Source of the DNA: Dehalococcoidia bacterium
GTDB taxonomy: Bacteria > Chloroflexota > Dehalococcoidia > DSTF01 > JACRBR01
Assembly: GCA_041494685.1 (NCBI GenBank)
Contig: JBGQBE010000031.1
Span: 1 to 35,476, forward strand
Reading direction: 5' to 3'
DNA: 35,476 nucleotides
Shown here: positions 133-13,635 of the stretch, piece after piece
Position numbering within the stretch: the stretch's first letter is position 1
How the letters are laid out: each line of letters opens with the position of its first letter
Translations under genes and position numbers: made by a program
Notes under the pieces: generated by a model
The model's database searches: none
What the model was told of the DNA's origin: nothing
What the model saw: the letters and a program-made list of their open reading frames with translations, nothing else

Positions 133-672
133 TTAGCGAGCGGCGCGGCGCCGCAGCGCGCCCGCGCCCATCAGCGCGGCGCCCGCAAGCGCGACCGCCA
201 GTGCGATTGGCGCGAACGGTGAGTCGCCGCCGGCCGTGGCGCCGGTGCCGGTGTTCGGCAGGTTCACCTCGGAGGCTACCTCGCCGCTGCCGACCACGAC
301 CGAGGCGGCGCAGCCCGTGCTGGCCGGAGATGCGGACACTTCCACCACACCCGCCTTGCTGCCGGAGTGCAGGGTGGCCGTGATCTGGCCCTGGGCGTTC
401 GTGACGCCGCTGTTCGGCGTAACGGTGGCGTCGCTGCCCGGCTGCTTCGTGACCTGCAGCGTCACAGCCTGGTTCGACGCAAGGTTGCCGTTGACGTCGC
501 GCACCGTGACCGTCAACGTGACGCTCCCGTTCGCGTTCGTCGTCGTCGCGCTCGTCGCGACGCTGCAATTGCCGTTCGGCGCCGGGTACTGCGCGTGCGC
601 GCCGCCAGCGTGGAACGCGGCCACCAGCACGGCGGACGAGATCAGTCCGGCGATCGTCAGCTTCGAAAACAT
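133..672 (-). CDS. Secreted single Ig-like (Big_1-type) surface protein with LPXTG sortase sorting signal
   Basis: Signal peptide ending AHA|Q; Big_1-like VTLTVTVRDVNGN...GVTNAQGQITATL; C-terminal LPNTG + hydrophobic helix + RRRAAR tail; SD AGGGAGGAAG upstream. Confidence 0.8.
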   Translation of the reverse strand: MFSKLTIAGLISSAVLVAAFHAGGAHAQYPAPNGNCSVATSATTTNANGSVTLTVTVRDVNGNLASNQAVTLQVTKQPGSDATVTPNSGVTNAQGQITATLHSGSKAGVVEVSASPASTGCAASVVVGSGEVASEVNLPNTGTGATAGGDSPFAPIALAVALAGAALMGAGALRRRAAR

Positions 673-2041: not shown

Positions 2042-3430
2042 TCAGGCGGGGGCGCCTGCCGCCCCGCCAGCGAGACGCCCCCGCGCGCGTTCGACGACGA
2101 TCCACGCGCGGGGCGCGATCGCGCCGGTGAAGGCGAGGAAGAGCAGGATGTTGATGCCCGCGCCCGCCAGGAACTCGGGATTCGCGTAGTGGAAACCGTC
2201 CCAGGACTTCACCGGCGGCGCAGCCCCGACCAGGTTGAAAAAGAACATCGCGCTCACCGGGACGTACAGCCGGAGCCAGCGCTGCTCGACGATCGCGACC
2301 GGCAGCAGCAGGCCCAGGAACGGGAAGAGATAGCGTTCGTGCGTCGTGACGGGCAACAGGTAGAACGCAAACGCCAGGTACGCCGCCGCGATCAGCGCGC
2401 CGCGCAGATCCGGCCGCGCCCAGGCGTACGCCAGGGCGATCGCCGCCGCGGCGGCGCTGAGCGCTATCCCCACCATGCGATACGTCGCGAAGAACAGCTC
2501 CGGGTCGTCGGCGGCCGGACGCGGCCCCGCGTCCCAGAAGCGCCAGAGGTTCCATGCCTCCCACGAGAGTTGCGGCGCCCGGTCGTGGAACAGCAGCCGG
2601 TAGACCTTCAAGATGCGGATCAGGTCGCCGTGCAGCAACCATGGCCCTGTCACCACGAGCCCCACGACCGCGCCCGCGGCGCCCGCTTCCAGCAGCGCGC
2701 GCACGCCCCCGCGCCGCACCGCGAGCAGCACGAGCAGCGGCAGTACGACCACGGGCTGCGGCTTCATCAGAAAGCCGAACGTCCACGCCGCGCCCGCGAG
2801 CCCCATACGCCCGCGGAACGCCAGCACGACGGCGGCCAACATCGCGATGGTCACGAGCGAATCCGTGTTGGGCCAGACCGCGCTGTCGTAGATAGCCGCG
2901 GGCTGCAGCGCGATCACCACCCCGGCGATCAGCGCAAGTCGCGTTGGGTTCGCTCGCGCGGCCGCGGGGTCTTCGCCGGCAAGGAGCCGCGTGACGGCGT
3001 ATACGGCGCCGACCAGCCCCAGGTCGAACAGGAGCATCGGCGCCTTCACCAGGAAATGCAACGCGCCGCCGGCGCCGTGCCCGTACGTGCCGCCGAACGA
3101 GGCGTAGACCGCCGAGAGCGGCCAGAGCACCCAGTGATAGCCGACGTAGTTCGTATCGGAGGTCCGAAAGACGTTCAGCACACCATGTTCGTGTATGGCC
3201 TGCATCCAGCCCTTCCAGTCCGACTCGTCGAGCGTGCCGTCGGGCAGGTAGGCGTACGCGGGCAGGAAGGGCAGCCGCACGAGCAGCGCCAGCACCAGGA
3301 CGCCGGCGAACGGCCGCCAGCCGCTCGTGAGCCACAGGACCAGCGGCGTATGCGCAGCGCGAGGTTGCGCCTGCGCGGATTGCGTCGGCTGCCGGTTCTC
3401 ACGTGGCAGTGACATCTTGGACACGGTCAT
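2042..3430 (-). CDS. Polytopic GT-C-fold glycosyltransferase (GT87/GT39-like mannosyltransferase)
   Basis: Many hydrophobic segments; motifs LVKAPMLLFD, PAAIYDSAVWPNTDS, MKPQ, THERYLFP typical of lipid-linked sugar transferases. Confidence 0.7.
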   Translation of the reverse strand: MTVSKMSLPRENRQPTQSAQAQPRAAHTPLVLWLTSGWRPFAGVLVLALLVRLPFLPAYAYLPDGTLDESDWKGWMQAIHEHGVLNVFRTSDTNYVGYHWVLWPLSAVYASFGGTYGHGAGGALHFLVKAPMLLFDLGLVGAVYAVTRLLAGEDPAAARANPTRLALIAGVVIALQPAAIYDSAVWPNTDSLVTIAMLAAVVLAFRGRMGLAGAAWTFGFLMKPQPVVVLPLLVLLAVRRGGVRALLEAGAAGAVVGLVVTGPWLLHGDLIRILKVYRLLFHDRAPQLSWEAWNLWRFWDAGPRPAADDPELFFATYRMVGIALSAAAAAIALAYAWARPDLRGALIAAAYLAFAFYLLPVTTHERYLFPFLGLLLPVAIVEQRWLRLYVPVSAMFFFNLVGAAPPVKSWDGFHYANPEFLAGAGINILLFLAFTGAIAPRAWIVVERARGRLAGGAAGAPA

Positions 3431-3536
3431 GCAGCCATCTTAACGTCCCGCGCCACGCTTCGTGCCACGCTCGCCGGACATCTCGCGTCAAGCACGCCCG
3501 CGGAACGGCGAGCGCGCCCCCGCAGCGACAAAGGTT

Positions 3537-3558
3537 GAGCGAGTACACGCACTCGCTC
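3537..3558 (-). terminator. Hairpin downstream of the cupredoxin gene
   Basis: GAGCGAGT-acacgc-ACTCGCTC 8-bp stem; weak U-tract. Confidence 0.35.
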
Positions 3559-3588
3559 CGCTCCGTCAGTCTCGGCGCTGATCGGCGG

Positions 3589-4149
3589 CTACTGCACGAT
3601 GAGTCCGCCGCGCATGCCGGACTGGTAGTGTCCCGGGACGTTGCACAGGTAAACATACTTCCCGGGCGCGAGCCTCATCGTCGCCTGCTTCACGTCCTTC
3701 GGCTCGATGTCGTCCGCTTCGCCGGGACTCGAGCCGGCGGATTCTTCATCGATCTTCCCGTCCTTCACCGGAAACGATGCCGGGTCGGCATCCGTCCGGA
3801 AGAGGACGAACTCGTGCTGCGTGGTGCCGGCGTTGATCACGTCGAACTTGATCTCGCCCGCCTTCAGGGGGCCGATGGCGGCGCTGCTTGGGCCCGTGAT
3901 CTTCCACTCGGACAGCGAGACCTCCACGGTCTGCTCCTTCTCGCTGTCGGGGCCGACGGGCCCCGCCGTCGGCGTCGGCGCGGCCGTGCCGGCGGCTGCG
4001 GAAGTCGTGGCAGCCGTCGTGGCGGCGGGCGCGGCCGTGCCCTCGTTGGATTTGCTGCTACTGCTTCCGCAGCCGACCGCGAGCGCCGCCATGCTCAGCG
4101 CCACGGCGGCCAGAACCAGACCCACCCTCGTCGTCCCTGACCGTTCCAT
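3589..4149 (-). CDS. Blue-copper (cupredoxin; auracyanin/sulfocyanin-like) lipoprotein
   Basis: Lipobox LAVGC; Ala/Thr/Pro linker; type-1 Cu ligands QHEF and YLCNVPGHYQSGM (C-x4-H-x4-M). Start ATG 4149 or TTG 4152. Confidence 0.85.
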   Translation of the reverse strand: MERSGTTRVGLVLAAVALSMAALAVGCGSSSSKSNEGTAAPAATTAATTSAAAGTAAPTPTAGPVGPDSEKEQTVEVSLSEWKITGPSSAAIGPLKAGEIKFDVINAGTTQHEFVLFRTDADPASFPVKDGKIDEESAGSSPGEADDIEPKDVKQATMRLAPGKYVYLCNVPGHYQSGMRGGLIVQ

Positions 4150-4301
4150 CAATTTCCTCTCTTGATAATTGCCGTCGAAGTGGGTGGATCATACTTGGCC
4201 GAACGCACAAGCGGAAAGCCGCGCCGCCGGCACTCGGACGCGGCTCGCTCAGGCGACTGGCGCGTGGGGGAAGGCGAAAGAACAACCGGCGCACAACGCG
4301 C

Positions 4302-4330
4302 AGCGGCCCGCCTGAAACAGGCGGGCCGCT
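4302..4330 (-). terminator. Perfect 13-bp hairpin after the redox operon
   Basis: AGCGGCCCGCCTG-aaa-CAGGCGGGCCGCT between the lipoprotein and cupredoxin genes. Confidence 0.6.
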
Positions 4331-4401
4331 CGACGGCTGTAGCGAGTCGCCAACCGGGGCCGGGTCAGCGAGGTACCCGGCTGGCGGGCGCGGGTGCCGG
4401 A

Positions 4402-5217
4402 TTACTTCAGCTTCGCCGCCGCCTGGTCGAGGAGCGGCAGTACTTCCTGCGCGTACGTCGCGATCGCCTTGACGTCCGTGGTGCTGGAGTCGGCTTCCTT
4501 CTCGATCGCCAACTCGCGCTGCTCGATCTGGTCAGCCAGCGCCGGGTCTACGGCCCGCGTCGCTTTGACGACCGCCTCCATTTGCGTGTCCATCGTGCCC
4601 TCGGTGTCGCGCGTACCTTGCACGTCACCGGCGTTCGCCTTGGCGATCACCGCATTCATGATCCCCTTGAGATCCTGAATGTCCTTAGCCAGCTCCGCCG
4701 CACTCGGGCCTGCGCCCGTAGAGACATCGAGCTTCAGCGCGATGACGATCTTGTCGAGCTGGGCCAGCGCGTCCGTCGCCTTCGCGGCGATCACGTTGAG
4801 ATCCGTCGTGCTGGCGTCGGCTTCCTTCTCGATCGCGAGCTCGTCCTGCTCGAGGGCGTCCGCGAGCGCAGGGTCGACGAGCCGCGTCGCCTTGATGGTC
4901 GCTTCCATCGACGTGTCCATCGTGGCCTCGGTGTCCTTCGTGCCCTGAAGGTCGCCGGCCTTGGCCTTCGTGACGACGTTCTGCAGAATCCCCTTCAGCA
5001 GCGTCACGTCATTCGCCAGCTCCTTTGGCTCGACCGTCGTCTCCGCCGCGGCGGTGGACGCCGTCGTCGCCGCGGCGGCTGGCTTGGTGGCGGCCGCAGC
5101 CGTCGTCGGCTTCGGTGCCGGGGTCGCCGTCTTGTCGCTGCTGCTACTTCCGCCGCAGGCGCCGGCGACCACCGCCAGTCCCACTATCACGCTCCCGATC
5201 AACAGCTGCTTCTTCAT
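4402..5217 (-). CDS. Lipoprotein with two tandem ~97-aa acidic helical repeats, function unknown
   Basis: Start MKKQ after GGAGGAGGAG; lipobox AGAC; A/T/P linker; repeats at 5022-4729 and 4695-4405, 61/97 identical by manual alignment. Confidence 0.8.
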   Translation of the reverse strand: MKKQLLIGSVIVGLAVVAGACGGSSSSDKTATPAPKPTTAAAATKPAAAATTASTAAAETTVEPKELANDVTLLKGILQNVVTKAKAGDLQGTKDTEATMDTSMEATIKATRLVDPALADALEQDELAIEKEADASTTDLNVIAAKATDALAQLDKIVIALKLDVSTGAGPSAAELAKDIQDLKGIMNAVIAKANAGDVQGTRDTEGTMDTQMEAVVKATRAVDPALADQIEQRELAIEKEADSSTTDVKAIATYAQEVLPLLDQAAAKLK

Positions 5218-5292
5218 GACCTTCTCCTCCTCCTTCGAACTCGCTCCGAGCTCCCTGTACGTACCCGATTCCATTCGCGCCAGACTTTGCGT

Positions 5293-5730
5293 CTACTTCT
5301 TCGCCTGGATGAACGCGATCAGCTTCTGCAGGTCGTCGTCCGAGAGCATGCTCGTCGTGAACGCCGGCATGCCCTTCGGCCCGTCCCTCACCTTCGTCTT
5401 GATCTTGGTTGCGCTCGCATCGGTCAGGTCCTTGCCGACGGCTCCGCCGCTGCCGCTGGGGCTGTGGCAGCTCGCGCAACCGTACTGGAAGAAAAGCAGC
5501 CGCCCATCGTGCACCGGGTCGCCCGTCTGGGCGTCCTGCGGCTTCGCGAGCGGCATACCCTCGAAGAGGTACTCGTCGCCGATGTACGCAACCTTCGTAC
5601 GAGTGTAGCCCGCGGCGCTCGCAAGGTTGCCGTGGGTATACGGGCTGCGGGCAACGATGATGGCGATGATGGTGATCGCGAGACCGCTCATCCCGATCGC
5701 CAGCACCATGGGAACAAGAAATCGTCTCAT
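5293..5730 (-). CDS. Membrane-anchored monoheme cytochrome c
   Basis: N-terminal TM helix, CASCH heme motif, distal Met in KGMPAF; ATGA overlap with the upstream gene. Confidence 0.88.
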   Translation of the reverse strand: MRRFLVPMVLAIGMSGLAITIIAIIVARSPYTHGNLASAAGYTRTKVAYIGDEYLFEGMPLAKPQDAQTGDPVHDGRLLFFQYGCASCHSPSGSGGAVGKDLTDASATKIKTKVRDGPKGMPAFTTSMLSDDDLQKLIAFIQAKK

Positions 5731-6317
5731 CGCACACTTCCCCGTCCAGCGGGCACCGCCAGCGCCAGACCGTCGGCCCTCCCCGCCCTGGCAATACGGA
5801 TGATCGTCACGCCGATAAAGATCAGCGTCCCCCAGACGACCGTGAGCAGTCCCATGATCAGCCATGAGTTCAGCCCGGGGACCTGGATGCCCGCCTTCTG
5901 CACGTACATCTGGGGCGCTGCGCCGTCAACAGCGATCGCGGCCGTCGTTTGTTCCACGGCGCTGCCGGCGGACCCGGTGTAGTCGACACGGATGTCGTGG
6001 GTGCCGCTCTCACGCGGCACAAATGAAATCGCCGCGACGCCCGCGCTGTTGGTGACGGCTCGTCCGATCTCCATGAAGCCATCGACCCGACCGAACGTCG
6101 CGTGCGCGTAGAACGTCACGCTCACTCCCGCGACCGGCGCGCCGGTGTCGGCGGACGTCACGGCTGCGTCGACCTCACTCGGCTGGCCAACCAGAGCGGT
6201 GGTCGGTTCGCTGACGCGCGTGAGCAGATGCGAGGCGTGCGCGGTGGTGGCCGCGGATCCGAGCGCGAGTACCGTGCACGTGAGAAGTCCTGCAGCTATC
6301 AACACCAACCGCTTCAT
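5727..6317 (-). CDS. Exported Ig-like beta-sandwich protein with C-terminal TM anchor
   Basis: Signal peptide (AHA|S); GAPVAGVSVTFY...AVTNSAGVAAISF beta pattern; C-terminal hydrophobic helix; ATGA overlaps at both ends. Confidence 0.7.
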   Translation of the reverse strand: MKRLVLIAAGLLTCTVLALGSAATTAHASHLLTRVSEPTTALVGQPSEVDAAVTSADTGAPVAGVSVTFYAHATFGRVDGFMEIGRAVTNSAGVAAISFVPRESGTHDIRVDYTGSAGSAVEQTTAAIAVDGAAPQMYVQKAGIQVPGLNSWLIMGLLTVVWGTLIFIGVTIIRIARAGRADGLALAVPAGRGSVR

Positions 6318-7672
6318 ACCGCACCTCCCGCTGGTTCGCCGGCGAGCTGTGACCGCACGCCTGGCAACGACTCCGCGATTGCTGTCTGGGATTCTTCGCG
6401 CTGCTCCGTGATCTCCCAGATGGCAAGCAGCGGAAAGACTTTCACGAAGAGGGTGATCAACAGGCCGAACAGCGCGAAGGACGCTGCGATGATGGACCAC
6501 TCGACCCAGGTCGGGCCGTAGTTTCGCGGCTCATACGGCATCAGCGGCACGCGCAGGGTCGCGACGACGATAAAGTAACGCTCGATCCACATGGCGACAT
6601 CGATGAGGAACGCGGCGGCGACGACGCCCCAGATGTTCCGCGTCCACGGGATCAGGATGAGCAGCGGCGGGATGACGAGTCCGCCGATGAAGTAGTACCA
6701 GTAGAATCCCGCGAACTGGCCCAGGAAGAGTTCGCGGAAGTGGAACTCTACGCCCGCCTCCATCTTGTAACCGGTGGTGATGTACTCGGACAGGTTGCCG
6801 TAGATCATGATCAGCGCCATCGCCGCGAGCAGGTAGCCCAGGTACACGAAGTGCTTCTCAAGGATGTACTCCTCGAGGTGGTACACCTTCCGCAGGATCG
6901 CCATGATGATGACCAGCGTCGCGACGCCCGAGAAAATAGCGCCGGCCACGAAGAACGCGCCGAAGATCGTGCTGTTCCAGCCGACGCGCAGGTTCATCGC
7001 GAAGATCCACGAGACCACCGTGTGCACCGATACCGCGATCGGGATGATGAGGATCATCATCGTGGCGATGATCGTCGCGAGCATGCTGCGCTGGCGGCTT
7101 TCGCCCGTCCAGCCGATCGCCAGCACGCTGTAGAGCCACTTGCGCCAGCCCGTCGTCCGGTCGCGGAAGATCGCCAGGTCGGGGATCATCGGCAGGCCCA
7201 GATAGGTGATGCTCGCCGTCAGGTACGTGGTGATGGCGACGACGTCCCAGATGATCGGCGACTGCCAGCGGCCGTACAGGATTACGTTCTGCACCCGGTC
7301 CGGCCGGCCGAGGTCGATGATCGGGAACAGCGCGCCGCAGCACAGCGCCACGACGGTGACGAACTCAGCCATGCGCGTCACCGGCGTGCGCCAACCCGCC
7401 TTCGACACGCGCAGGATCGCCGAGATGAGCGTGCCGGCATGGCTGATGCCGATGAAGAACACGAAGTTTGTGATGTAGAAGCCCCACGAGATGCGGTCGC
7501 GCAAGCCGGTGACGATCAGCCCGTCGCGCAACTGCACGTAATACGCGTAGCCGCCCCACGCGATGACCGCGAGCAGGAAGGAAAGCCACACCCAGTAGAT
7601 CTTGCTCGTGTGCGCGATCGGCGCGTAGGTCGTGTCCTCCAGCCGTTGCCGCCAGGGGCCTATCGCTTCCAT
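6314..7672 (-). CDS. NrfD/PsrC-family quinone-interacting membrane subunit, ActC-like
   Basis: WGFYITNFVFFIGISHAGTLISAILR, RMAE, DLGRP, SPIIWD, SVHTVVS, WIERYFIVV, YGPTWVEW; about 10 TM; start MEAIG after GGGGGCGAAG. Confidence 0.9.
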   Translation of the reverse strand: MEAIGPWRQRLEDTTYAPIAHTSKIYWVWLSFLLAVIAWGGYAYYVQLRDGLIVTGLRDRISWGFYITNFVFFIGISHAGTLISAILRVSKAGWRTPVTRMAEFVTVVALCCGALFPIIDLGRPDRVQNVILYGRWQSPIIWDVVAITTYLTASITYLGLPMIPDLAIFRDRTTGWRKWLYSVLAIGWTGESRQRSMLATIIATMMILIIPIAVSVHTVVSWIFAMNLRVGWNSTIFGAFFVAGAIFSGVATLVIIMAILRKVYHLEEYILEKHFVYLGYLLAAMALIMIYGNLSEYITTGYKMEAGVEFHFRELFLGQFAGFYWYYFIGGLVIPPLLILIPWTRNIWGVVAAAFLIDVAMWIERYFIVVATLRVPLMPYEPRNYGPTWVEWSIIAASFALFGLLITLFVKVFPLLAIWEITEQREESQTAIAESLPGVRSQLAGEPAGGAV

Positions 7673-8610
7673 GTCTTCGCCCCCTTCGCTCGCTGCACCC
7701 AGGGCCACACGGTCGCCATGCGTCCCTTCTTCGCTGAATCCCGCCCGACGAACTCGCCGTGGCCGGGGACGTAATAGACGCGCGGCTTCGTGCCCAGGTC
7801 TTCCTTGAGGTTGTAGGCCTCGTGCTCCGAGAGGAACCGGCTGACGGACACGATATCCTTGCCGTTGGTGGCGACGTCCTGCTCGAGGTCGCCGTAGTAG
7901 ATCGCCTTGTTCGGGCACCCCTGAGCGCAGTACGGCAACGTGCCGGCCCGCGCCATGTCGGGGCAGAAGTCGCACTTCATCACGGTGCCCCTCTTCGCCG
8001 GCGTCTGGTGCTCGATGTCGTAGTGCGCGAGCATCGCTTCCGGCGGAATCGGCGCGTCGCCCCAGTTGAAGAAGCGTCGGTCGTAGGGGCACGCCGCCAT
8101 GCAGATGCGACAGCCGATGCAGCGGTTCTGGTCGATCAGGATGCTGCCTTCCGGCGTCGCGAAGGTCGCGCCGACGGGGCAGACGTTGGTGCACGGCGGG
8201 TTCTGGCACTGCTGGCACGGCGCCGGGATGAACTGCGTCCCGCCGCCATGCAGCGGTGCCTCGAAGACCTCGATCCACTGCATCGGCTCCGGGGCGAAGT
8301 GCCCTTCGATGCAGGCGGTCGTGCACTGCGGCGGCTTGCCGACACTCTGGCAGCCGTCACAGTAGCGCAGGTCGATGATCATCGTCCAGCGGCGCACACG
8401 GCCGTTCGGCGCGAGCGCCGGGTCGTAGTCGGCGCGGACGGGGCCCTTGCGGGGCGCGAGCACCGAGCTCAGCACATTCGGCAGAAGCGGGAGCGGTGCC
8501 ACGCTCAGCGCACCCAGCCCGAAGAGCTTGAGCATGCGCCGGCGGCCCACCTTGCCGTCCGGTTGTCCGGTCTGCTCCTGTGCCAGCGAGAGGTCCTGAT
8601 TCGTCTCCAT
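7660..8610 (-). CDS. TAT-exported four-cluster [4Fe-4S] protein (NrfC/DmsB/DsrO-like)
   Basis: GRRRMLKLF twin-arginine signal; 16 Cys in four groups (CDGC-x8-CTTAC, CQQC-x4-CTNVCP, CIGCRICMAACP, CDFC-x11-CAQGCP); LGTKPRVYY. Confidence 0.92.
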   Translation of the reverse strand: METNQDLSLAQEQTGQPDGKVGRRRMLKLFGLGALSVAPLPLLPNVLSSVLAPRKGPVRADYDPALAPNGRVRRWTMIIDLRYCDGCQSVGKPPQCTTACIEGHFAPEPMQWIEVFEAPLHGGGTQFIPAPCQQCQNPPCTNVCPVGATFATPEGSILIDQNRCIGCRICMAACPYDRRFFNWGDAPIPPEAMLAHYDIEHQTPAKRGTVMKCDFCPDMARAGTLPYCAQGCPNKAIYYGDLEQDVATNGKDIVSVSRFLSEHEAYNLKEDLGTKPRVYYVPGHGEFVGRDSAKKGRMATVWPWVQRAKGAKTWKR

Positions 8611-8798
8611 GACCGCTCCGATCCGTCCGTGGCTCCGGGTCTAGAGCCACCTACAGGATCGGTGAACGGGCCAAACGTGGCATCGGAGCATGCGGCAGAT
8701 TCGGCCGGTGCGATATACGCATGGCGGGCAGGGGTGAATTGCGCGAAATACCTACCCGCCCTGCCGGGCTGCCCGATGAAGGCGGTCGCGCCAGCCCG

Positions 8799-8804
8799 TA
8801 GAAT
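8799..8804 (+). promoter_or_regulatory. -10 box TAGAAT of a short-leader response regulator transcript
   Basis: TAGAAT 9 nt upstream of ATG 8814; no SD. Confidence 0.5.
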
Positions 8805-8813
8805 GCCAGCACG

Positions 8814-9518
8814 ATGCAAGACACAGCGCAACCAGAACGCATCCGCATCATCATCGCCGAGGACCACGCGGTGGTCCGTGAAGGGACGCGCCAGCTGCTG
8901 GAACGCGAACCTGACCTGGAGGTGGTGGGCGAGGCGGCAGACGGCGCACAGGCGGTAGCCCTTGTCGAGCAGTTCCGCCCGGACGTCGCCATCATGGACA
9001 TCTCGATGCCGGTGATGACCGGCATCGAGGCCACGAAGCGGATCAAGGCCAGCCACCCGGCGACCGCCATCCTGATCCTCTCGGCGTACGACGACGACCA
9101 GTACGTCTTCGCGCTGCTCGCCGCCGGGGCTGCCGGCTACCTCCTGAAGGACGTGCCGTCCGCGGAACTGGTGCGCGCGGTACGGCTGGTGCACGCCGGC
9201 GAACCGGTGCTGCATCCGGCCATCGCCCGCAAAGTGCTCGCCCGGTTCGCAACACCGTCGGGGCAGCCGGCAGCCGCCCCACCGACAGGAGAGCCCGCGC
9301 GGCTGCTACTCACCGACCGGGAGCAGGAGGTCCTCCAGCTTGCCGCCTGCGGGCTGAGCAACGCCGAGATCTCGGCGCGGCTCTATCTCAGCATCAGGAC
9401 CGTGCAGGTGCACCTGACGCACATTTTCGGCAAGCTGGGCGTCGGATCGCGCACGGAAGCCGTGATCGCCGGCTTGCGAAGCGGCCTGCTCAAACTGGAG
9501 GACCTGGGTGAAGACTGA
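8814..9518 (+). CDS. NarL/FixJ-family response regulator (REC + LuxR HTH)
   Basis: AEDH, DVAIMDISMP, GYLLK; LTDREQEVL...SNAEIS...RTVQVHLTHIFGKLGV. Confidence 0.95.
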   Translation: MQDTAQPERIRIIIAEDHAVVREGTRQLLEREPDLEVVGEAADGAQAVALVEQFRPDVAIMDISMPVMTGIEATKRIKASHPATAILILSAYDDDQYVFALLAAGAAGYLLKDVPSAELVRAVRLVHAGEPVLHPAIARKVLARFATPSGQPAAAPPTGEPARLLLTDREQEVLQLAACGLSNAEISARLYLSIRTVQVHLTHIFGKLGVGSRTEAVIAGLRSGLLKLEDLGED

Positions 9519-11079
9519 GATGGAGCTCGCCGCGACCCGGTCGCCCGCGCAGCTCCCCGCCCGGCTCGCGCACGACATCATGGTGCCGATCCGCCGGCTG
9601 CCCGACCGCCTGCATGACGGCCGCTTCTGGCGGATCCAGTTGATGGTGTTCGCGGCGACGGCCCCGCACTACATCATCGAAACCGTCGGCTTCACGAATC
9701 CGTTCGAGACCTTCCACGGCCTGGCGATCACCCTCTATGTGATCCCGCTCCTCTACGCCGCCATCGCCTTCGGCTGGGAAGGCGCCATCCTCACTGCGGT
9801 CTGGATCGTGGTGCTCACGTCGCCCAGCATGTGGGTGTGGCACCGATCGTCGTACCACTGGCTGACCGAGGTCGGGCAGCTGGCGATTACGCTGCCCGCC
9901 GGCATCATGGTCGCCTGGCGCGTGGATCTCGAATCGAAGCAGCGCCAGCGCGCCGAGCAGACCAGCGCGAGCCTCGGCCTCCTCAACGAGATCGGCGAGC
10001 GGCTGAGCCACACCCTTGACGTCGAACAAGCGCTCCCGGGAGTCGTGGCGCTCCTGGTCAGCGAGCTGCCGGTCGACGCCGTCTGGCTGTGCCTGGAGCC
10101 GGAGTCCCCCGGCGGCGAGCGGAGGGTGATCCGGGAGATGCGGCATCCAGCCGCGGGGCGAGCGGACGTCGACGTAGACCGGCTGCACGAGATCGCGGCC
10201 GCGACGCGCGAGCCCGTGCGGCTCGGCGGACGCGTCGTCGCCGTGCCGCTTTCCGGCGAGGGCGGCATCCTCGGGTCGCTGGGTGCGGCCATGCCCGAGG
10301 GGTATGCATTTACCGATGACCAGGAGAAGCTGCTGGCGACCGTGGCCCATGAGATCCGCGTGGCCGTCGAGAACGGGCGGCTGTACCAGCAACGCCAGGA
10401 GAGCCTGCAAACGTACGCACGGCAGGTGACGCAAGCGCAGGAGGACGAGCGCCTGCGCATCTCTCGCGAACTGCACGACGAGACCGCGCAGGAACTGGTG
10501 CACATCGTGCGACGGATCGAGCGACTGGGCGAAGCCGCCCACGCCGACGTGCCAAAGCAGGTCGACGAACTGCTGACGCTGGCGCGCGGTACGCTGCAGT
10601 CCGTCCGGCGCTTCAGCCGCGATCTGCGGCCGTCGGTCCTCGACGACCTGGGCCTGGTGCCGGCGATCGAGCTGGCGGTAGAGGCGACGAACACGCGGCT
10701 GCCCGGCGGCGCGAAGCTCGACGTGACAGGGGAGCCGCGGCGGCTTGGACCGGCGGTGGAACTGGCGCTGTTTCGGATCGCGCAGGAGGCCCTGCACAAC
10801 GTCGAAAAGCACGCCGAGGCCACGTCGGCGTCCGTACAGCTCGCGTTCGAGCAGGGCGCGGTCCGGCTCGACGTCACGGACGACGGCCGCGGCTGCGAGC
10901 TGCCGCAGCACGTCTCTCAGCTGGCGCGCAAGGGGAAGCTCGGCGTCCTCGGCATGAAGGAGCGCGCGGAACTGGTCGGCGGGTCGTTCGACTTCAGCTC
11001 CATACCGGGTCAGGGCAGCCGGGTCAGCGTCGTGGTGACGCAGGACGAGGCTGAAGACGCGCGGATCCCCATGCGCTGA
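9508..11079 (+). CDS. Membrane sensor histidine kinase (TM domain + GAF + HisKA_3 + HATPase)
   Basis: About 4 N-terminal TMs; ELHDETAQ H-box; LRPSVLDDLGL; QEALHNVEKH; DDGRG; GMKERAELVGG. Start GTG 9508 or ATG 9520. Confidence 0.92.
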   Translation: MKTEMELAATRSPAQLPARLAHDIMVPIRRLPDRLHDGRFWRIQLMVFAATAPHYIIETVGFTNPFETFHGLAITLYVIPLLYAAIAFGWEGAILTAVWIVVLTSPSMWVWHRSSYHWLTEVGQLAITLPAGIMVAWRVDLESKQRQRAEQTSASLGLLNEIGERLSHTLDVEQALPGVVALLVSELPVDAVWLCLEPESPGGERRVIREMRHPAAGRADVDVDRLHEIAAATREPVRLGGRVVAVPLSGEGGILGSLGAAMPEGYAFTDDQEKLLATVAHEIRVAVENGRLYQQRQESLQTYARQVTQAQEDERLRISRELHDETAQELVHIVRRIERLGEAAHADVPKQVDELLTLARGTLQSVRRFSRDLRPSVLDDLGLVPAIELAVEATNTRLPGGAKLDVTGEPRRLGPAVELALFRIAQEALHNVEKHAEATSASVQLAFEQGAVRLDVTDDGRGCELPQHVSQLARKGKLGVLGMKERAELVGGSFDFSSIPGQGSRVSVVVTQDEAEDARIPMR

Positions 11080-11221
11080 TCCCGTCCTCCACGCGACGGA
11101 ACCCGCATGCGTCCCGAGTTCCTGACATCTCGCAGCGGCGTTCGGAGCCGGATGGCCCTGTGAGCGTACGCGGCGCCACGACTACGCTGTGAAGAGGCAG
11201 TACGGGTGCGTGGAGGTACGT

Positions 11222-11710
11222 ATGAGGATCGCACTCGTGTTCGCAGCGGTCGTCGCGACTGCGGCGCTGACGGCCGGCATCGCATGCGGCGGCGACAGCA
11301 AGAGCGCCGCGCCAACGGCCGCGCCAACGGCGGTGCCGACCGGCGGCGGATATCCCGACAAGCTGCAGCTCACCGACAGCGACAACGGCAGGACCGTGCA
11401 GCTCGCGCGGGGCGGCCAGGTGATCGTGACGCTCGAAAGCAATCCATCCACCGGCTTCAGCTGGTATGTCGCCGGCATGGCCGGACCGGAGCTTGAGTTG
11501 GCCGGCGAGCCCCGATACGTGCCGCCTGTTTCGGCGACACCTGTTACAGGAGCGAGCGGCGCGCAGGTCTTCACGTTCCGCGCGACCGGCGTGGGGATGC
11601 CACCCGCCGGCACGCCGGCCGTCGTCCAGGTGGAGATCGACTACAAGCGGAGCTTCGAGCCGGACGTGCCGCCCGAGAAGAGCTTCCGATTCACCGTCGA
11701 GATCAGGTGA
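11222..11710 (+). CDS. Chagasin-like I42 cysteine protease inhibitor lipoprotein
   Basis: Lipobox GIAC; hallmark ESNPSTGFSW, GASG, YKRSFE; SD GGAGG. Confidence 0.85.
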   Translation: MRIALVFAAVVATAALTAGIACGGDSKSAAPTAAPTAVPTGGGYPDKLQLTDSDNGRTVQLARGGQVIVTLESNPSTGFSWYVAGMAGPELELAGEPRYVPPVSATPVTGASGAQVFTFRATGVGMPPAGTPAVVQVEIDYKRSFEPDVPPEKSFRFTVEIR

Positions 11711-11825: not shown

Positions 11826-13211
11826 CTACTGGGGCAGCACGATGAGGTGCGAGCCTGCTGCCAGCGCGCCCGCGACGGTCTGGAATATGCTGGTCAGCTG
11901 CGATGTCTTGGGAAGGCAGAAGAAGTGGTCCCCATCGGTGTTCTCCGCACTCGTGCAGCCGTTGTCGACCGACGTCGTCGCCATGTCCGCGAGGAGCGTC
12001 GTGGCGGGCTTGTTCTTGTACGTACCCGACGAATCGGGACACACGTCGGTGCCGGCCAGGCCAAAGCCGATCGTAAAGATCTCGATGCCCGCGGTCTTGG
12101 ACGTCTGCGCCTCGTTGAAGGCCGCTTGACACGTGAAGTCGCTCGCTGTGCCGGCACTGCTGAAGTTCGGGGTGCCGTCCGTCTCCAGGATGATCCCCTT
12201 CTTTGCGCCCGCGCGGCCGTTGGCGAGCAGATACTGCCTGGCCATCTTGACCGGCGTTGAGAGATTCGTACCGGTGCCGGACGTGTTGAAGCAGTTGATC
12301 GCCTTCACCAGCGTACTGCTGGTGTTGAGCGTCCCGTTCGCGTTCAGGTAGGCCTCGTTGACGGGCGCGCCCGTACCGCTCAATCCCACGGGGACCCACT
12401 TCGAGACGGTCGTCGTGTCGTACTGACCGCTGCTCGCGGCGAGGCCAAACGCGCCGGAGTTCGCGCCGGTGCACGACGATGTAGTCTGGCTGGGCCCGAG
12501 CAGCCCGAGCGCGATCCACTGGAGCTTCGGGTCCCACGTCTGCAGGATGGCGTTGCCGGCGGCCCGCGCGTTCGTCAGGTCCGTGCTACTCATGCTTCCG
12601 GTGCGGTCCATGATGAGCACGGCATCGACGAGCCCGCTCGGCGGTCCGCCGCACGAGCCTCTACACGCAGCACTGGTGACGCTCCCGGTGCTGCCCTGCT
12701 TGATGCCGACAGCCGGCGCGAGCAGGTAGTTCACGGTGTTGCTGGCGCTCACGACGATGACGTTGCACTTGTCTCCATTCGCCGGGACGCACGGGCTCAC
12801 GGCGAGGCCGTTCTTCACGAACCAGCTGGCATCGGCTTTCGGATCGCACGACGCCGGTATGTCGGCGGCATCGGGGATGCCGTCGCCGTTCCGGTCTCCG
12901 ACGAGGCAGCGGAAGCTCACGCTCACCTTGGCGGCCGTCAGCGCCTTGTCGTTCGACAGCGTGTACTGGAGCGCAACCGACGCGGCGTTCACGGTGTCAT
13001 CGGGCAGCAACTGGGCGCCGGCCAGCGCGCCCGCGTCGACCGCGCCCTGGACGCTCTGGCGCTCGTGGATCATGAAACCCAGGTCAACGGCGAGCGCCCC
13101 CATCCCGAGGACGATCGTCAGCACCAAGGCTGCCAGCACCAGCATCTGGCCTCGTTCGTGCGACGGCGAGGACGGCTCGCCACGGCGTCGGATGCGCATC
13201 ATCATGCCCAC
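11826..13211 (-). CDS. TadG-like pseudopilin with vWA domain
   Basis: ERGQ prepilin site + hydrophobic helix, DAGALAGA Tad motif, MIDAS-like DRTGS, GTN, ETDG, IFTIGFG; Cys-rich. Confidence 0.82.
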   Translation of the reverse strand: MGMMMRIRRRGEPSSPSHERGQMLVLAALVLTIVLGMGALAVDLGFMIHERQSVQGAVDAGALAGAQLLPDDTVNAASVALQYTLSNDKALTAAKVSVSFRCLVGDRNGDGIPDAADIPASCDPKADASWFVKNGLAVSPCVPANGDKCNVIVVSASNTVNYLLAPAVGIKQGSTGSVTSAACRGSCGGPPSGLVDAVLIMDRTGSMSSTDLTNARAAGNAILQTWDPKLQWIALGLLGPSQTTSSCTGANSGAFGLAASSGQYDTTTVSKWVPVGLSGTGAPVNEAYLNANGTLNTSSTLVKAINCFNTSGTGTNLSTPVKMARQYLLANGRAGAKKGIILETDGTPNFSSAGTASDFTCQAAFNEAQTSKTAGIEIFTIGFGLAGTDVCPDSSGTYKNKPATTLLADMATTSVDNGCTSAENTDGDHFFCLPKTSQLTSIFQTVAGALAAGSHLIVLPQ

Positions 13212-13212
13212 C

Positions 13213-13635
13213 TTACTCGTGCCTCATCGTCGACGTGGACGTCATCGTGATCGGCCCGCTCAACAGGTGGACGAAATTCCCCAGCGGCGTGACGAAGGTG
13301 TAGGTGTAGGTGACGGTCACCGCCATCGCGTCCCCGGAGCTGCCCTGGCAGGTCGAGGGAGTGATGGTCACCGTCACTGGCGGGGTCAGCCCGTGCGCCA
13401 CGGCCTGCGCCTGGTTCGTCACCTGCGTGCACGACTGCCCCAGGGCGAGGACGCGGGCACCCTCGCGCGAGGCGTTGGTCACGGTCAGCCACGCCTTCAG
13501 GCCAAGGCTGAAATCAATAATGCCGAACAGGAGAATGAGAAAGACGGGCATGACCAACGCAAACTCGGCCAGGCTCTGGCCGCGTTGGGACGCATGTCGC
13601 CGTCCCTTCCGAAGTAGTCGCGCTGCGCCAACCAT
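13213..13635 (-). CDS. TadE-like pseudopilin
   Basis: RGQSLAEFALVMPVFLILLFGIIDF...NASREGAR; SD GAGGAG. Confidence 0.9.
   Translation of the reverse strand: MVGAARLLRKGRRHASQRGQSLAEFALVMPVFLILLFGIIDFSLGLKAWLTVTNASREGARVLALGQSCTQVTNQAQAVAHGLTPPVTVTITPSTCQGSSGDAMAVTVTYTYTFVTPLGNFVHLLSGPITMTSTSTMRHE

Follow-up and report, generated by a model that had tools for sequence, protein, structure and literature searches.

Among the alternatives to the bc1 complex, only the alternative complex III (ACIII) has, to our knowledge, been studied well; structures have been solved for the enzymes of Rhodothermus marinus (6f0k), Flavobacterium johnsoniae (6btm) and Roseiflexus castenholzii (6lod), and a further structure is entry 8k9e. 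A smaller arrangement is the dimeric redox module of the NrfCD/PsrBC/DsrOP type, composed of an iron-sulfur (Fe-S) subunit and a cofactor-less NrfD protein with a quinone site at its outer face (Duarte et al. 2018, PMC6303296; this and the other papers given by number are cited from excerpts). NrfC/NrfD pairs can pass electrons to periplasmic cytochromes without a catalytic subunit (PMC6303296, PMC7327174), and clusters of NrfD, 4Fe-4S and cytochrome genes have been proposed to encode menaquinone:cytochrome c oxidoreductases (Leu et al. 2020, PMC7327174); judging from these excerpts, the working idea of an NrfC/NrfD pair serving a cytochrome in the absence of a catalytic subunit is already in print. 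Described here is a four-gene module that shares the Fe-S subunit, the cofactor-less NrfD protein and, putatively, the outer-face quinone site with the dimeric redox module. It lies on a stretch of DNA of 35,476 nt, hereafter the window (contig JBGQBE010000031.1, positions 1–35,476, assembly GCA_041494685.1), from an uncultured sediment member of the Chloroflexota, Dehalococcoidia bacterium. The module is thought, on balance, to be a menaquinol:cytochrome c oxidoreductase with exchangeable acceptors, and a stripped-down relative of ACIII. Its genes, in the order in which they are read, are these:

7660–8610, minus strand: P0001, Fe-S subunit of 316 amino acids (aa) with a twin-arginine translocation (TAT) signal for export; NrfC/DsrO/ActB2-like, with 16 Cys for four cubane clusters

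6314–7672, minus strand: P0002, ActC-type NrfD membrane subunit (Pfam NrfD), 452 aa, with a putative quinol site and proton path

5727–6317, minus strand: P0003, immunoglobulin (Ig)-like subunit (assigned with AlphaFold2 and Foldseek), 196 aa, with a signal peptide and a C-terminal transmembrane (TM) helix

5293–5730, minus strand: P0004, monohaem class I cytochrome c (Pfam Cytochrome_CBB3), 145 aa, with an N-terminal membrane anchor

An earlier sequence-only reading had placed six genes on the minus strand between 8610 and 3589, and all six are present. The 13-nt overlap and the two ATGA overlaps that it reported were confirmed by reading the sequence: the Fe-S and NrfD genes overlap at 7672–7660, the NrfD and Ig genes at 6317–6314, and the Ig and cytochrome genes at 5730–5727. 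A four-cluster ferredoxin subunit and a cofactor-less NrfD protein are thus encoded side by side, as is characteristic of the NrfCD/PsrBC type (Pfam assignments, 16 Cys, 13-nt overlap). The six genes had been taken together as one module; the unit that is conserved consists of the first four only.

Conservation of the gene order was determined for 32 loci of the Chloroflexota-type NrfD clade, each gene being counted only where the flanking DNA was sufficient (at least 900 nt upstream of NrfD for the Fe-S gene, at least 700 nt downstream for the Ig gene and at least 1300 nt downstream for the cytochrome c gene). Of the loci so counted, 25 of 26 have the Fe-S gene, 23 of 26 the Ig gene and 24 of 25 the cytochrome c gene, in the same order and on the same strand. 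It is apparent from these counts that the four-gene unit is conserved beyond chance. The loci that lack the Ig gene (L001, L002 and L030) are among the closest relatives of the window, and each of the three genomes carries an unlinked, monocistronic Ig-TM paralogue that is 58–62% identical to P0003; the subunit has therefore been retained in the genome after leaving the operon.

The neighbourhood of the module was scanned with Pfam, using 144 flanking open reading frames (ORFs) from 23 related loci, among them L042, which is of the Ig-NHL paralogue type; the ORF filter may have missed some frames. No Mo, NiFe or multihaem partner was observed in the operon, among the window ORFs, or in the conserved neighbourhood of the 23 loci, in agreement with the sequence-only reading, and the monohaem cytochrome c that it had singled out proved to be a fixed partner (24 of 25 loci). 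It had also looked to a conserved linkage of the cytochrome, Ig, lipoprotein and cupredoxin genes: that of the cytochrome and Ig genes held, but that of the lipoprotein and cupredoxin genes did not.

The kinship of the NrfD subunit was examined by several approaches. P0002 scores 95.5 bits with the Pfam NrfD family, above the cut-off. When all PDB sequences were searched with phmmer, the only matches to P0002 at E<1e-50 were ActC chains (8k9e_C, 6lod_C, 6f0k_C and 6btm_C; E values from 1.3e-62 to 2.4e-58, residues 17–433), ActF was matched at 1e-3, and PsrC gave no match at E<=0.01. Reference ActC sequences were labelled by synteny, as NrfD genes adjoining ActD (PF11821), and were drawn from eight Chloroflexota genomes and eight further ActD loci; for DsrP, the references were genes that exceeded the NCBIfam cut-off, taken from eight genomes of the phylum to which one metagenome-assembled genome (MAG) labelled as Deltaproteobacteria belongs. 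The identity of P0002, as determined by tblastn, is 33–41% to ActC genes adjoining ActD in Chloroflexota, 26–28% to true DsrP, 45% to a paralogue on contig C1 of the same genome, and 47–52% to a group from Planctomycetota, Nitrospirota, Acidobacteriota and others.

A phylogenetic tree of 106 NrfD rows was computed with a quick IQ-TREE run (midpoint root, SH-aLRT support, synteny-labelled references only). The partial rows L023, L026, L028, L044, L047 and L069 were excluded, and L068 and L079 (<330 aa), L040 (in which the NrfD match was in three pieces) and seven duplicate loci had been left out earlier, at sequence extraction. In the tree, an ActC-type clade (99) contains canonical ActC (97) and two sister clades that are joined at 82. 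The first of these, of 36 rows, represents operons with a pentahaem cytochrome, an 828–877-aa protein, an Fe-S protein and NrfD. The second, of 38 rows (SH-aLRT 99), holds the P0002 family, its members being the window, the Chloroflexota relatives, five-plus-one Actinomycetota loci, a Symbiobacterium MAG and the Ig-NHL paralogues. On the far side of the midpoint root from the ActC-type clade is DsrP (99). Two further NrfD proteins of the host genome were also placed, that of contig C1 inside the 38-row clade and that of contig C15 outside it, near DsrP. The PDB matches, the tblastn identities and the tree all bear out the earlier description of the NrfD protein as ActC-like, and they support, at the level of sequence, its assignment to a clade of its own outside canonical ActC.

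Residues of functional importance in ActC were mapped onto P0002 by hand, using the phmmer alignment and the residue lists of PMC5928083. P0002 retains the cytoplasmic half-channel in full, with all 14 residues present (D171, R170, D165, R100, E420, R95, E103, S84, T81, T106, S154, Y150, H78 and H217), and all are invariant or nearly so in 21 orthologues, the alignment of which contains at least 150 invariant columns. In the quinol pocket, ActC D169 corresponds to D143 of P0002, and the hydrophobic residues W63, I67, F70, P117 and V220 are retained.

The Fe-S subunit, P0001, bears the twin-arginine motif GRRRMLKLF and has its 16 Cys in four ferredoxin-type motifs. It consists of ferredoxin domains only, with no ActB-style fusion to a Mo-like B1 portion, and it scores 65.4 bits with Pfam Fer4_11, above the cut-off. 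PDB matches were obtained to PsrB (2vpw_B, E 2.9e-24) and to ActB (6f0k_B), the latter over residues 796–993 only. The full set of 16 Cys occurs in 25 of 28 core-family loci, the three exceptions being genes cut short by a contig end; it is also complete in 6 of 6 Actinomycetota loci and in the Symbiobacterium locus. The RRxFL motif is present in 29 of 35 Fe-S proteins of the family, and three of the misses are truncated genes. A TAT signal of its own is typical of NrfC-type proteins with Sec-exported cytochromes as partners, and not of Fe-S subunits exported together with a Mo subunit. In the third motif P0001 has Cys167, at a position where all eight canonical ActB sequences examined have Thr (Cys-x2-Thr), as does Rhodothermus ActB in the alignment. 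This is presumably the position that decides between a 3Fe and a 4Fe cluster in DmsB and NarH.

Membership of the described families was considered for both subunits. The NCBIfam scores for DsrO, DsrP, NrfC, QrcC and QrcD are all below the curated cut-offs. DsrOP was rejected on the basis of 155.1 bits for DsrO, the best NCBIfam match of P0001 (cut-off 200), 138 bits for DsrP, that of P0002 (cut-off 350), the low identity to DsrP given above and the distance between the two in the tree. Qrc was rejected as well (QrcC, 113.8 against 400; QrcD, 49.1 against 570), and no hexahaem or Mo-like gene occurs in the operon.

The features shared with ACIII are a ten-helix quinol subunit of the ActC type, which aligns over its full length at E of approximately 1e-60 and keeps the 14 cytoplasmic half-channel residues; an Fe-S module with four clusters that is homologous to ActB2; a monohaem cytochrome c that would provide the last haem; a candidate blue-copper protein of auracyanin type nearby; and, by prediction, an extra pair of TM helices at the position of ActD. 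In contrast, ACIII has a pentahaem ActA, a Mo-like ActB1 and a second NrfD protein, ActF, and the four-gene module is without all three. The operon contains a single CxxCH, and no multihaem family was found among the 31 window ORFs scanned. NrfD was matched three times in the host genome, once in each of three clusters that lie on separate contigs, so that there is no second NrfD gene in the operon. ActD (PF11821) gave 0 matches in the host genome, compared with matches in 58 of 201 sampled Chloroflexota genomes. The proximal cluster of ACIII has the Cys-x2-Thr motif of a 3Fe-4S cluster where the module has four Cys, and ActC has His139 and Asp253 where the module has Asp and Ile. ACIII has no Ig-like ectodomain, and its cytochrome, ActE, is lipid-anchored, whereas P0004 is anchored by a helix. 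An identification of the module as canonical ACIII was therefore rejected, there being no fused ActB1, [3Fe-4S] motif, ActA, ActD or ActF.

The sister clade of operons with pentahaem, Mo-like, Fe-S and NrfD genes, found in Planctomycetota, Nitrospirota, Acidobacteriota, Binatia and others, represents a split-ActB arrangement that is ACIII- or Qrc-like. The NrfD proteins of these operons are 47–52% and their Fe-S proteins approximately 35% identical to those of the window, and all 16 Cys are present in 33 of 35. ORFs were listed for five loci, the fifth of which, L039, belongs to the window's own family. The other four have a cytochrome with five CxxCH motifs, a protein of 828–877 aa (labelled Mo-like from its size and position), further multihaem cytochromes and no Ig-TM gene. 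The NrfD clusters of PMC7327174, as far as they are described in the excerpts, likewise have multihaem cytochromes, as opposed to the monohaem cytochrome and Ig-TM subunit seen here.

P0004 has an N-terminal TM helix, one CxxCH (CASCH) and a methionine in the sequence GMPAF, and it matches PF13442 (Cytochrome_CBB3; 51.4 bits) and PF00034 (33.6 bits), both above the cut-off. By the CxxCH, the distal Met and the Pfam matches, it is a class I c-type cytochrome. Among 21 sequences, the invariant residues of the haem domain are C85, C88, H89, M121 and P122. A juxtamembrane motif, RSPxTHxN...G(Y/F)xRT, has R28, S29, P30, T32, N35, G41, R44 and T45 invariant, and this stretch just outside the helix, rather than the haem domain, is the most conserved part of the protein.

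The AlphaFold2 model of P0003 (pLDDT 84.8) comprises a seven-strand sandwich at residues 31–131 and a helix at 151–183. Foldseek returned 22 PDB matches at E<=0.001 to macroglobulin/Ig-like domains, the best being the MG4 domain of C5 (6rpt_A; TM-score of 0.70 on the target); Pfam Ig matches were below their cut-offs, and there was no match to PF11821. An Ig-like fold of the macroglobulin type is thus confirmed for the predicted structure. An alignment of 26 family members shows an invariant VW inside the helix and a conserved QLY...AGxxVPG segment before it; no conserved set of Cys, Met or His ligands was found in it. The only recurrent His directly follows the site of signal-peptide cleavage (A-S-H), in most rows but not all. 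A haem or metal site in the Ig protein was considered and is not favoured, there being no conserved Cys or Met in the 26 sequences; a copper site at the N-terminus, which was considered as well, is a speculative possibility.

In five Actinomycetota loci the Ig domain, the cytochrome c domain and both membrane helices form one protein of 370–385 aa, the gene order being NrfD, Fe-S and then this fusion. Such a fusion argues for a physical Ig–cytochrome pair. The complex of NrfD, the cytochrome and the mature Ig protein (the partner) was predicted, each chain with its own alignment. The score was 0.66 (0.65, 0.68 and 0.66 in the individual runs), compared with 0.01 for the best of three controls; scores this high were obtained in the calibration for 116 of 157 solved complexes and for 2 of 215 mismatched pairs, counts that are only rough for three chains with their own alignments. 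For the partner the pLDDT did not fall below 69, and at least 57% of contacts were common to the runs. Confident contacts were predicted for Ig residues 151–180 with NrfD 136–163, NrfD 186–212 and cytochrome 3–27. The two NrfD helices concerned, one after D143 and the other before S215/H217, were counted by hand as the counterparts of ActC TM helices 4 and 5, and it is these helices that the two crossed helices of ActD contact in the Rhodothermus ACIII (PMC5928083). The prediction supports binding of the Ig subunit to NrfD and the cytochrome, and, because the predicted contacts fall where ActD sits, the single helices of the Ig protein and the cytochrome would be a functional stand-in for ActD. 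Their connectivity is the reverse of that of ActD, with both ends outside in the fused form; they are contributed by two proteins, and they do not have the conserved Glu of ActD.

Downstream of the four genes lie the remaining elements of the region:

4402–5217, minus strand: P0005, lipoprotein of 271 aa with two four-helix-bundle repeats (AlphaFold2); accessory and lineage-restricted

4290–4341, minus strand: hairpin rich in G+C (13-bp stem, 4330–4302) and U-rich stretch; probable end of the operon transcript

3589–4149, minus strand: P0006, candidate type-1 copper cupredoxin lipoprotein of 186 aa, by its ligand pattern; candidate electron acceptor

The lipoprotein and cupredoxin genes are not tightly coupled to the first four. 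P0005 follows the cytochrome gene after a gap of 75 nt and has its own GGAGGAG, and the 252-nt gap between P0005 and P0006 contains the 13-bp hairpin. The stretch 4400–4270 has a minimum free energy of -74.5 kcal/mol (z -4.7; none of 200 shuffled sequences was equally stable), and because of this strong hairpin the cupredoxin is probably on a transcript of its own. A simple terminator scan caught only a small second hairpin at 4301–4289; a simple scan for sigma-70-like promoters, which is uninformative for this phylum, found 0 in 3300–9000.

P0005 has the lipobox VAGAC and two copies of a four-helix-bundle domain of approximately 105 aa (two bundles in the AlphaFold2 model, pLDDT 75.7), where the proteins of its relatives are single-copy. 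By tblastn the family occurs in only 5 of 80 loci, all of them close relatives (L001, L002, L009, L030 and L040), and the earlier proposal that the repeat lipoprotein is a subunit of the module is not upheld by this distribution. Nothing meaningful was found for P0005 in Pfam or NCBIfam, the ESM Atlas gave unnamed clusters only (0.91, 0.90 and 0.89), and Foldseek had no PDB match at E<=0.001, the weak rows being alpha-catenin and EfeO/EfeM/Algp7 with TM-scores of approximately 0.3. VIA-align gave Z values of up to 12.8 to FAT domains, PsbQ/CyanoQ, cytochrome b562 fusions and designed bundles, a range that is common for helical bundles. A 'split EfeO', with four-helix domains and a cupredoxin on separate proteins, was also considered. 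As P0005 is devoid of His, and with it of an HxxE metal motif, the idea was dropped.

P0006 has the lipobox AVGC and the ligand pattern His...Cys-x4-His-x4-Met, and its Pfam Copper-bind score is just below the cut-off (20.8 against 21.2 bits). Its best PDB matches are auracyanin B (1ov8_A, E 9.3e-5), 6kol (2e-4) and auracyanin A (2aan, 0.019). The auracyanins of Chloroflexus and Roseiflexus are, like P0006, lipoproteins with a Cys-x4-His-x4-Met loop, and to that extent the protein is auracyanin-like, as had been suggested; the similarity is, however, confined to the 29 residues of the copper loop, 157–185. The further suggestion that the cupredoxin is a fixed subunit was not sustained, given the position of its gene behind the hairpin and its distribution among the nearest relatives. 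A cupredoxin was present within 3.5 kb in 7 of the 23 loci, namely L011, L012 and L014 (two-domain proteins encoded between the regulator and the Fe-S gene), L031 (weak), L039 (the Symbiobacterium MAG, labelled Symbiobacterium thermophilum, where it adjoins a Cu-ATPase), L051 and L065. In another 7 of the 23 (L005, L015, L020, L021, L024, L030 and L040), a gene for the haem-b protein EB_dh stands in the tail of the operon, directly after the cytochrome. Because cupredoxin and EB_dh each occur in a different set of seven, 'variable acceptor' describes the cupredoxin better than 'fixed subunit' does. It is apparent, then, that a constant core is followed by varying genes. In two relatives a gene of the haem-binding HmuY-like (hemophore) family follows EB_dh (L024:10616–11269 and L040:10509–11258), which hints that the tail genes handle haem b. 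Genes for System II cytochrome c maturation (ResB, CcsA or DsbD/CcdA-type) were seen near L005, L011, L012 and L039.

Divergent from the Fe-S gene is a two-component system, 8814–11079:

8814–9518, plus strand: LuxR-type response regulator (Pfam)

9508–11079, plus strand: HisKA_3 histidine kinase with a membrane-embedded N-terminus (Pfam), which pairs with the LuxR regulator

Of the 23 related loci scanned, 21 have a HisKA_3 kinase next to the module and 16 a LuxR regulator.

The host genome (3.29 Mb, 87 contigs, 97.6% complete) was searched for possible partners. It encodes an aa3-type oxidase, the subunit II of which (302 aa) is without a cytochrome c domain, and three class I cytochrome c domains in all. 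It also has an operon for a bc-type complex, with the N- and C-terminal parts of cytochrome b followed by Rieske; the module is therefore an additional branch and not the sole complex III of the organism. The bc operon ends in a 408-aa fusion of a class I cytochrome c and a cupredoxin (C7:38182–39408, minus strand; L137:2182–3408), an unusual replacement for 'cytochrome c1', and transfer from haem c to blue copper is therefore used in this organism. Another fusion, of CopC, CopD and cytochrome c (794 aa), is encoded at C3:126881–129265 (L136:4881–7265, minus strand), with a second CopC protein upstream.

The other two NrfC/NrfD clusters of the genome are likewise without a catalytic subunit, and each stands beside a LuxR regulator or a PAS/HisKA_3 kinase. 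The cluster on C1 (approximately 103.5–108.2 kb; L087:6618–11204) has Fe-S, NrfD, a 547-aa Ig+NHL protein, a multihaem cytochrome and an NHL protein; that on C15 (approximately 38.4–42.1 kb; L086:7368–11136) has a multihaem cytochrome, Fe-S and a 794-aa NrfD–NHL fusion, and adjoins an aldehyde:ferredoxin oxidoreductase. There are 13 Molybdopterin-family matches in approximately 11 genes, on contigs C4, C15, C16, C21 and C30. Molybdopterin oxidoreductase genes of approximately 970–1030 aa are piled up to an unusual degree, with five on C16 within approximately 20 kb and three on C15, and at least two of these adjoin Fe-S genes with 3-Cys third motifs.

The first 178 codons of the Ig gene (window positions 5782–6328) occur a second time in the genome, with 98% aa identity, at a contig end (C67:1–686; L135). 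This copy is directly preceded by approximately 140 nt that are 86% identical to the leader of the Fe-S gene (8629–8767), and no Fe-S or NrfD gene intervenes. Contigs of two DNA runs, X1 and X2, have this junction as well, with 6328 joined to 8647 through 21 intervening letters. This could be a second locus, a gene-converted copy of an unlinked Ig paralogue, or a co-existing strain variant.

The gene structure, homology, linkage and residue conservation established above allow an electron path, with a direction, an acceptor and proton coupling, to be proposed. Menaquinol would bind in the outer-face pocket of the ActC-type subunit, and its electrons would pass to the proximal [4Fe-4S] cluster of the TAT-exported subunit, along the four clusters and on to the single haem of the anchored cytochrome c. 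From there they would be delivered to an exchangeable extracytoplasmic carrier, in this organism most plausibly the neighbouring type-1 copper lipoprotein and in relatives perhaps the haem-b EB_dh lipoprotein or the two-domain cupredoxins, and the carrier would in turn donate to the aa3 oxidase or another acceptor. The Ig-like protein, which appears to have no cofactor, would act as a structural clamp, its C-terminal helix pairing with the N-terminal helix of the cytochrome on NrfD. Quinol oxidation is probably coupled to charge translocation through the cytoplasmic half-channel, because all 14 of its ActC residues are kept. Expression of the operon would be switched by its own HisKA_3/LuxR system. 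Class I cytochromes c with His/Met ligation and type-1 copper proteins have potentials far above that of menaquinone, and it is because of these usual high potentials that the quinol-oxidising direction is preferred here.

Several observations weigh against this proposal and temper it. In the quinol pocket, two of the three charged residues differ from those of ActC: the position of His139 is taken by Asp120, which is invariant, and that of Asp253 by Ile223. An Asp at the His139 position is listed for DsrP, QrcD and others (Calisto & Pereira, PMC8076601), and because D143 and the hydrophobic residues are kept beside it, the pocket appears from its sequence to be a hybrid. Only three of the six residues of the periplasmic half-channel are kept (R365, E364 and E296), Y270, Y323 and E338 being replaced by Phe, Asn and Val, respectively. 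The quinol chemistry and the pumping may therefore differ from those of ActC. The [3Fe-4S] cluster of ActB, FeS1, adjoins the quinol site according to the excerpted literature; P0001 is without the corresponding signature, Cys-x2-Thr-x2-Cys-x3-Cys-Pro, and has a four-Cys motif for its quinol-proximal cluster, so that the +140 mV of FeS1 in ACIII cannot be assumed here. The predicted complex covers three of the four subunits (NrfD, the cytochrome and the Ig protein), and of 401 Chloroflexota genomes sampled, only 15 gave a match to the P0003 family profile. As for the acceptor, the strong hairpin makes it probable that the cupredoxin is separately transcribed, and tblastn gave no match to P0006 at the loci of the window's four closest relatives (L001, L002, L030 and L040). 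The sequencing runs listed as containing the stretch are DNA runs only, none being of RNA. Finally, with a bc-type complex of its own, the organism has a less evident physiological need for a second route.

Electrons could, alternatively, run in the opposite direction through a Qrc-like cytochrome c/cupredoxin:menaquinone reductase, either downhill from a low-potential donor or uphill at the expense of the proton motive force. This is held to be unlikely: the potentials of the partners lie far above that of menaquinone, and an energy input would be needed. Uphill electron flow driven by the proton motive force has been proposed for ACIII in iron oxidisers. The presence of four Cys in all four clusters, the Asp in place of ActC His139, as in QrcD and DsrP (PMC8076601), and the occurrence of copper-handling genes and cupredoxins near some homologues, such as the Cu-ATPase at L039, are compatible with reversal, and the kept cytoplasmic half-channel would also suit a redox loop of the Qrc type that takes protons from the N side (PMC6303296). 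The proximal cluster of QrcC is, however, itself of the 3Fe-4S type (PMC6303296), so that four Cys are no mark of Qrc; the QrcC and QrcD scores are far under their cut-offs; and no low-potential donor (hydrogenase, formate dehydrogenase or cytochrome c3) is linked to the module in the window or the 23 loci.

Two other explanations concern the partners of the module rather than its direction. In a monoderm cell it might serve as an outward conduit, quinol electrons passing via the anchored cytochrome to surface carriers that reduce or oxidise extracellular metals or minerals, instead of supplying the oxidase. All of the accessory proteins are tethered at the outer face by a lipid or a helix, the stretch occurs in sediment metagenome runs, and the host has two paralogous NrfC/NrfD clusters, with multihaem cytochromes and NHL/Ig proteins beside LuxR/HisKA_3 genes. 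In Methanoperedenaceae, clusters of NrfD, Fe-S and cytochrome genes have been proposed to act in extracellular electron transfer, and these have relatives in Dehalococcoidales (PMC7327174). This explanation is regarded as more unlikely still, since the module has a single haem and no multihaem wire, no gene for an outer-surface multihaem protein or a metal oxidase is linked to it in the window or the 23 loci, and cupredoxins and class I cytochromes typically donate to oxidases and nitrite reductases. Least probable of the three is the idea that the Fe-S/NrfD pair anchors a catalytic enzyme encoded elsewhere, such as a host molybdopterin oxidoreductase, with the cytochrome and Ig protein as side branches. 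The number of molybdopterin genes in the host, against only three NrfD genes, would accord with it, but across Chloroflexota, Actinomycetota and the Symbiobacterium MAG no Mo subunit is linked to the clade, and the Ig and cytochrome genes are. In addition, the Fe-S protein has its own TAT signal, the sister clade that uses a Mo-like subunit encodes that subunit in the operon, and the Fe-S genes with 3-Cys motifs beside at least two Mo genes (L098 and L102) indicate that the latter have Fe-S partners of their own.

Other genes of the window may be mentioned briefly. Directly downstream of the cupredoxin (2042–3430, minus strand) is a gene for a 462-aa polytopic membrane protein with no Pfam match at E<=1e-4, which by eye has the look of a glycosyl- or arabinosyl-transferase. 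A small Big_1 Ig-like protein is encoded at 133–672 (minus strand), a peptidase inhibitor of the chagasin family at 11189–11710 (plus strand), and TadE/TadG-like pilus genes with a VWA domain at 11826–13635 (minus strand).

No description of an operon with Fe-S, ActC-like, Ig-TM and monohaem cytochrome genes was found in the excerpts of PMC8076601, PMC5928083, PMC6303296, PMC7327174, PMC11650866, PMC13332983 and bioRxiv 10.1101/2021.08.23.457424. The gene set, which the sequence-only reading had taken to be undescribed, was thus not encountered in the literature searched, subscription journals and supplements (e.g. Fig. S7 of PMC7327174) lying outside it. The combination not found described is that of an ActC-clade subunit with a four-Cys proximal cluster, an anchored monohaem cytochrome with a juxtamembrane motif, an Ig-TM subunit and swappable acceptors. 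In current annotations the genes bear the names 'polysulfide reductase' or 'HybB-like'.

The menaquinol:cytochrome c oxidoreductase favoured here probably provides the cell with a second and far less elaborate path by which electrons can pass from membrane quinol to extramembrane carriers. More tentatively, and with rather less confidence, the module may be seen as a self-sufficient 'mini-ACIII' of monoderm-type lineages (Chloroflexota, Actinomycetota and Symbiobacterium), that is, a charge-translocating menaquinol:cytochrome c oxidoreductase of four subunits in which the position of ActD is filled by the Ig and cytochrome helices, with interchangeable surface carriers (cupredoxin, EB_dh) and a dedicated two-component switch; as such, the module may have retained the minimal core that gave rise to ACIII and to the split-ActB complexes.

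The way in which ActC couples quinol oxidation to proton movement is hard to study, ACIII being a large complex with 23 helices, six haems and four clusters. The module appears to be a natural four-subunit version without ActA, ActB1, ActD and ActF, and would be a simpler object in which to test quinol oxidation and charge translocation. It would also reveal the role of the ActD helices, as two unrelated helices appear to replace them. The constant core with its changing acceptor genes (cupredoxin, EB_dh and the four-helix lipoprotein) represents a natural experiment in the rewiring of an electron-transfer chain, and the module adds a respiratory branch to metabolic models of the abundant, mostly uncultured Chloroflexota and Actinomycetota of sediments and soils.

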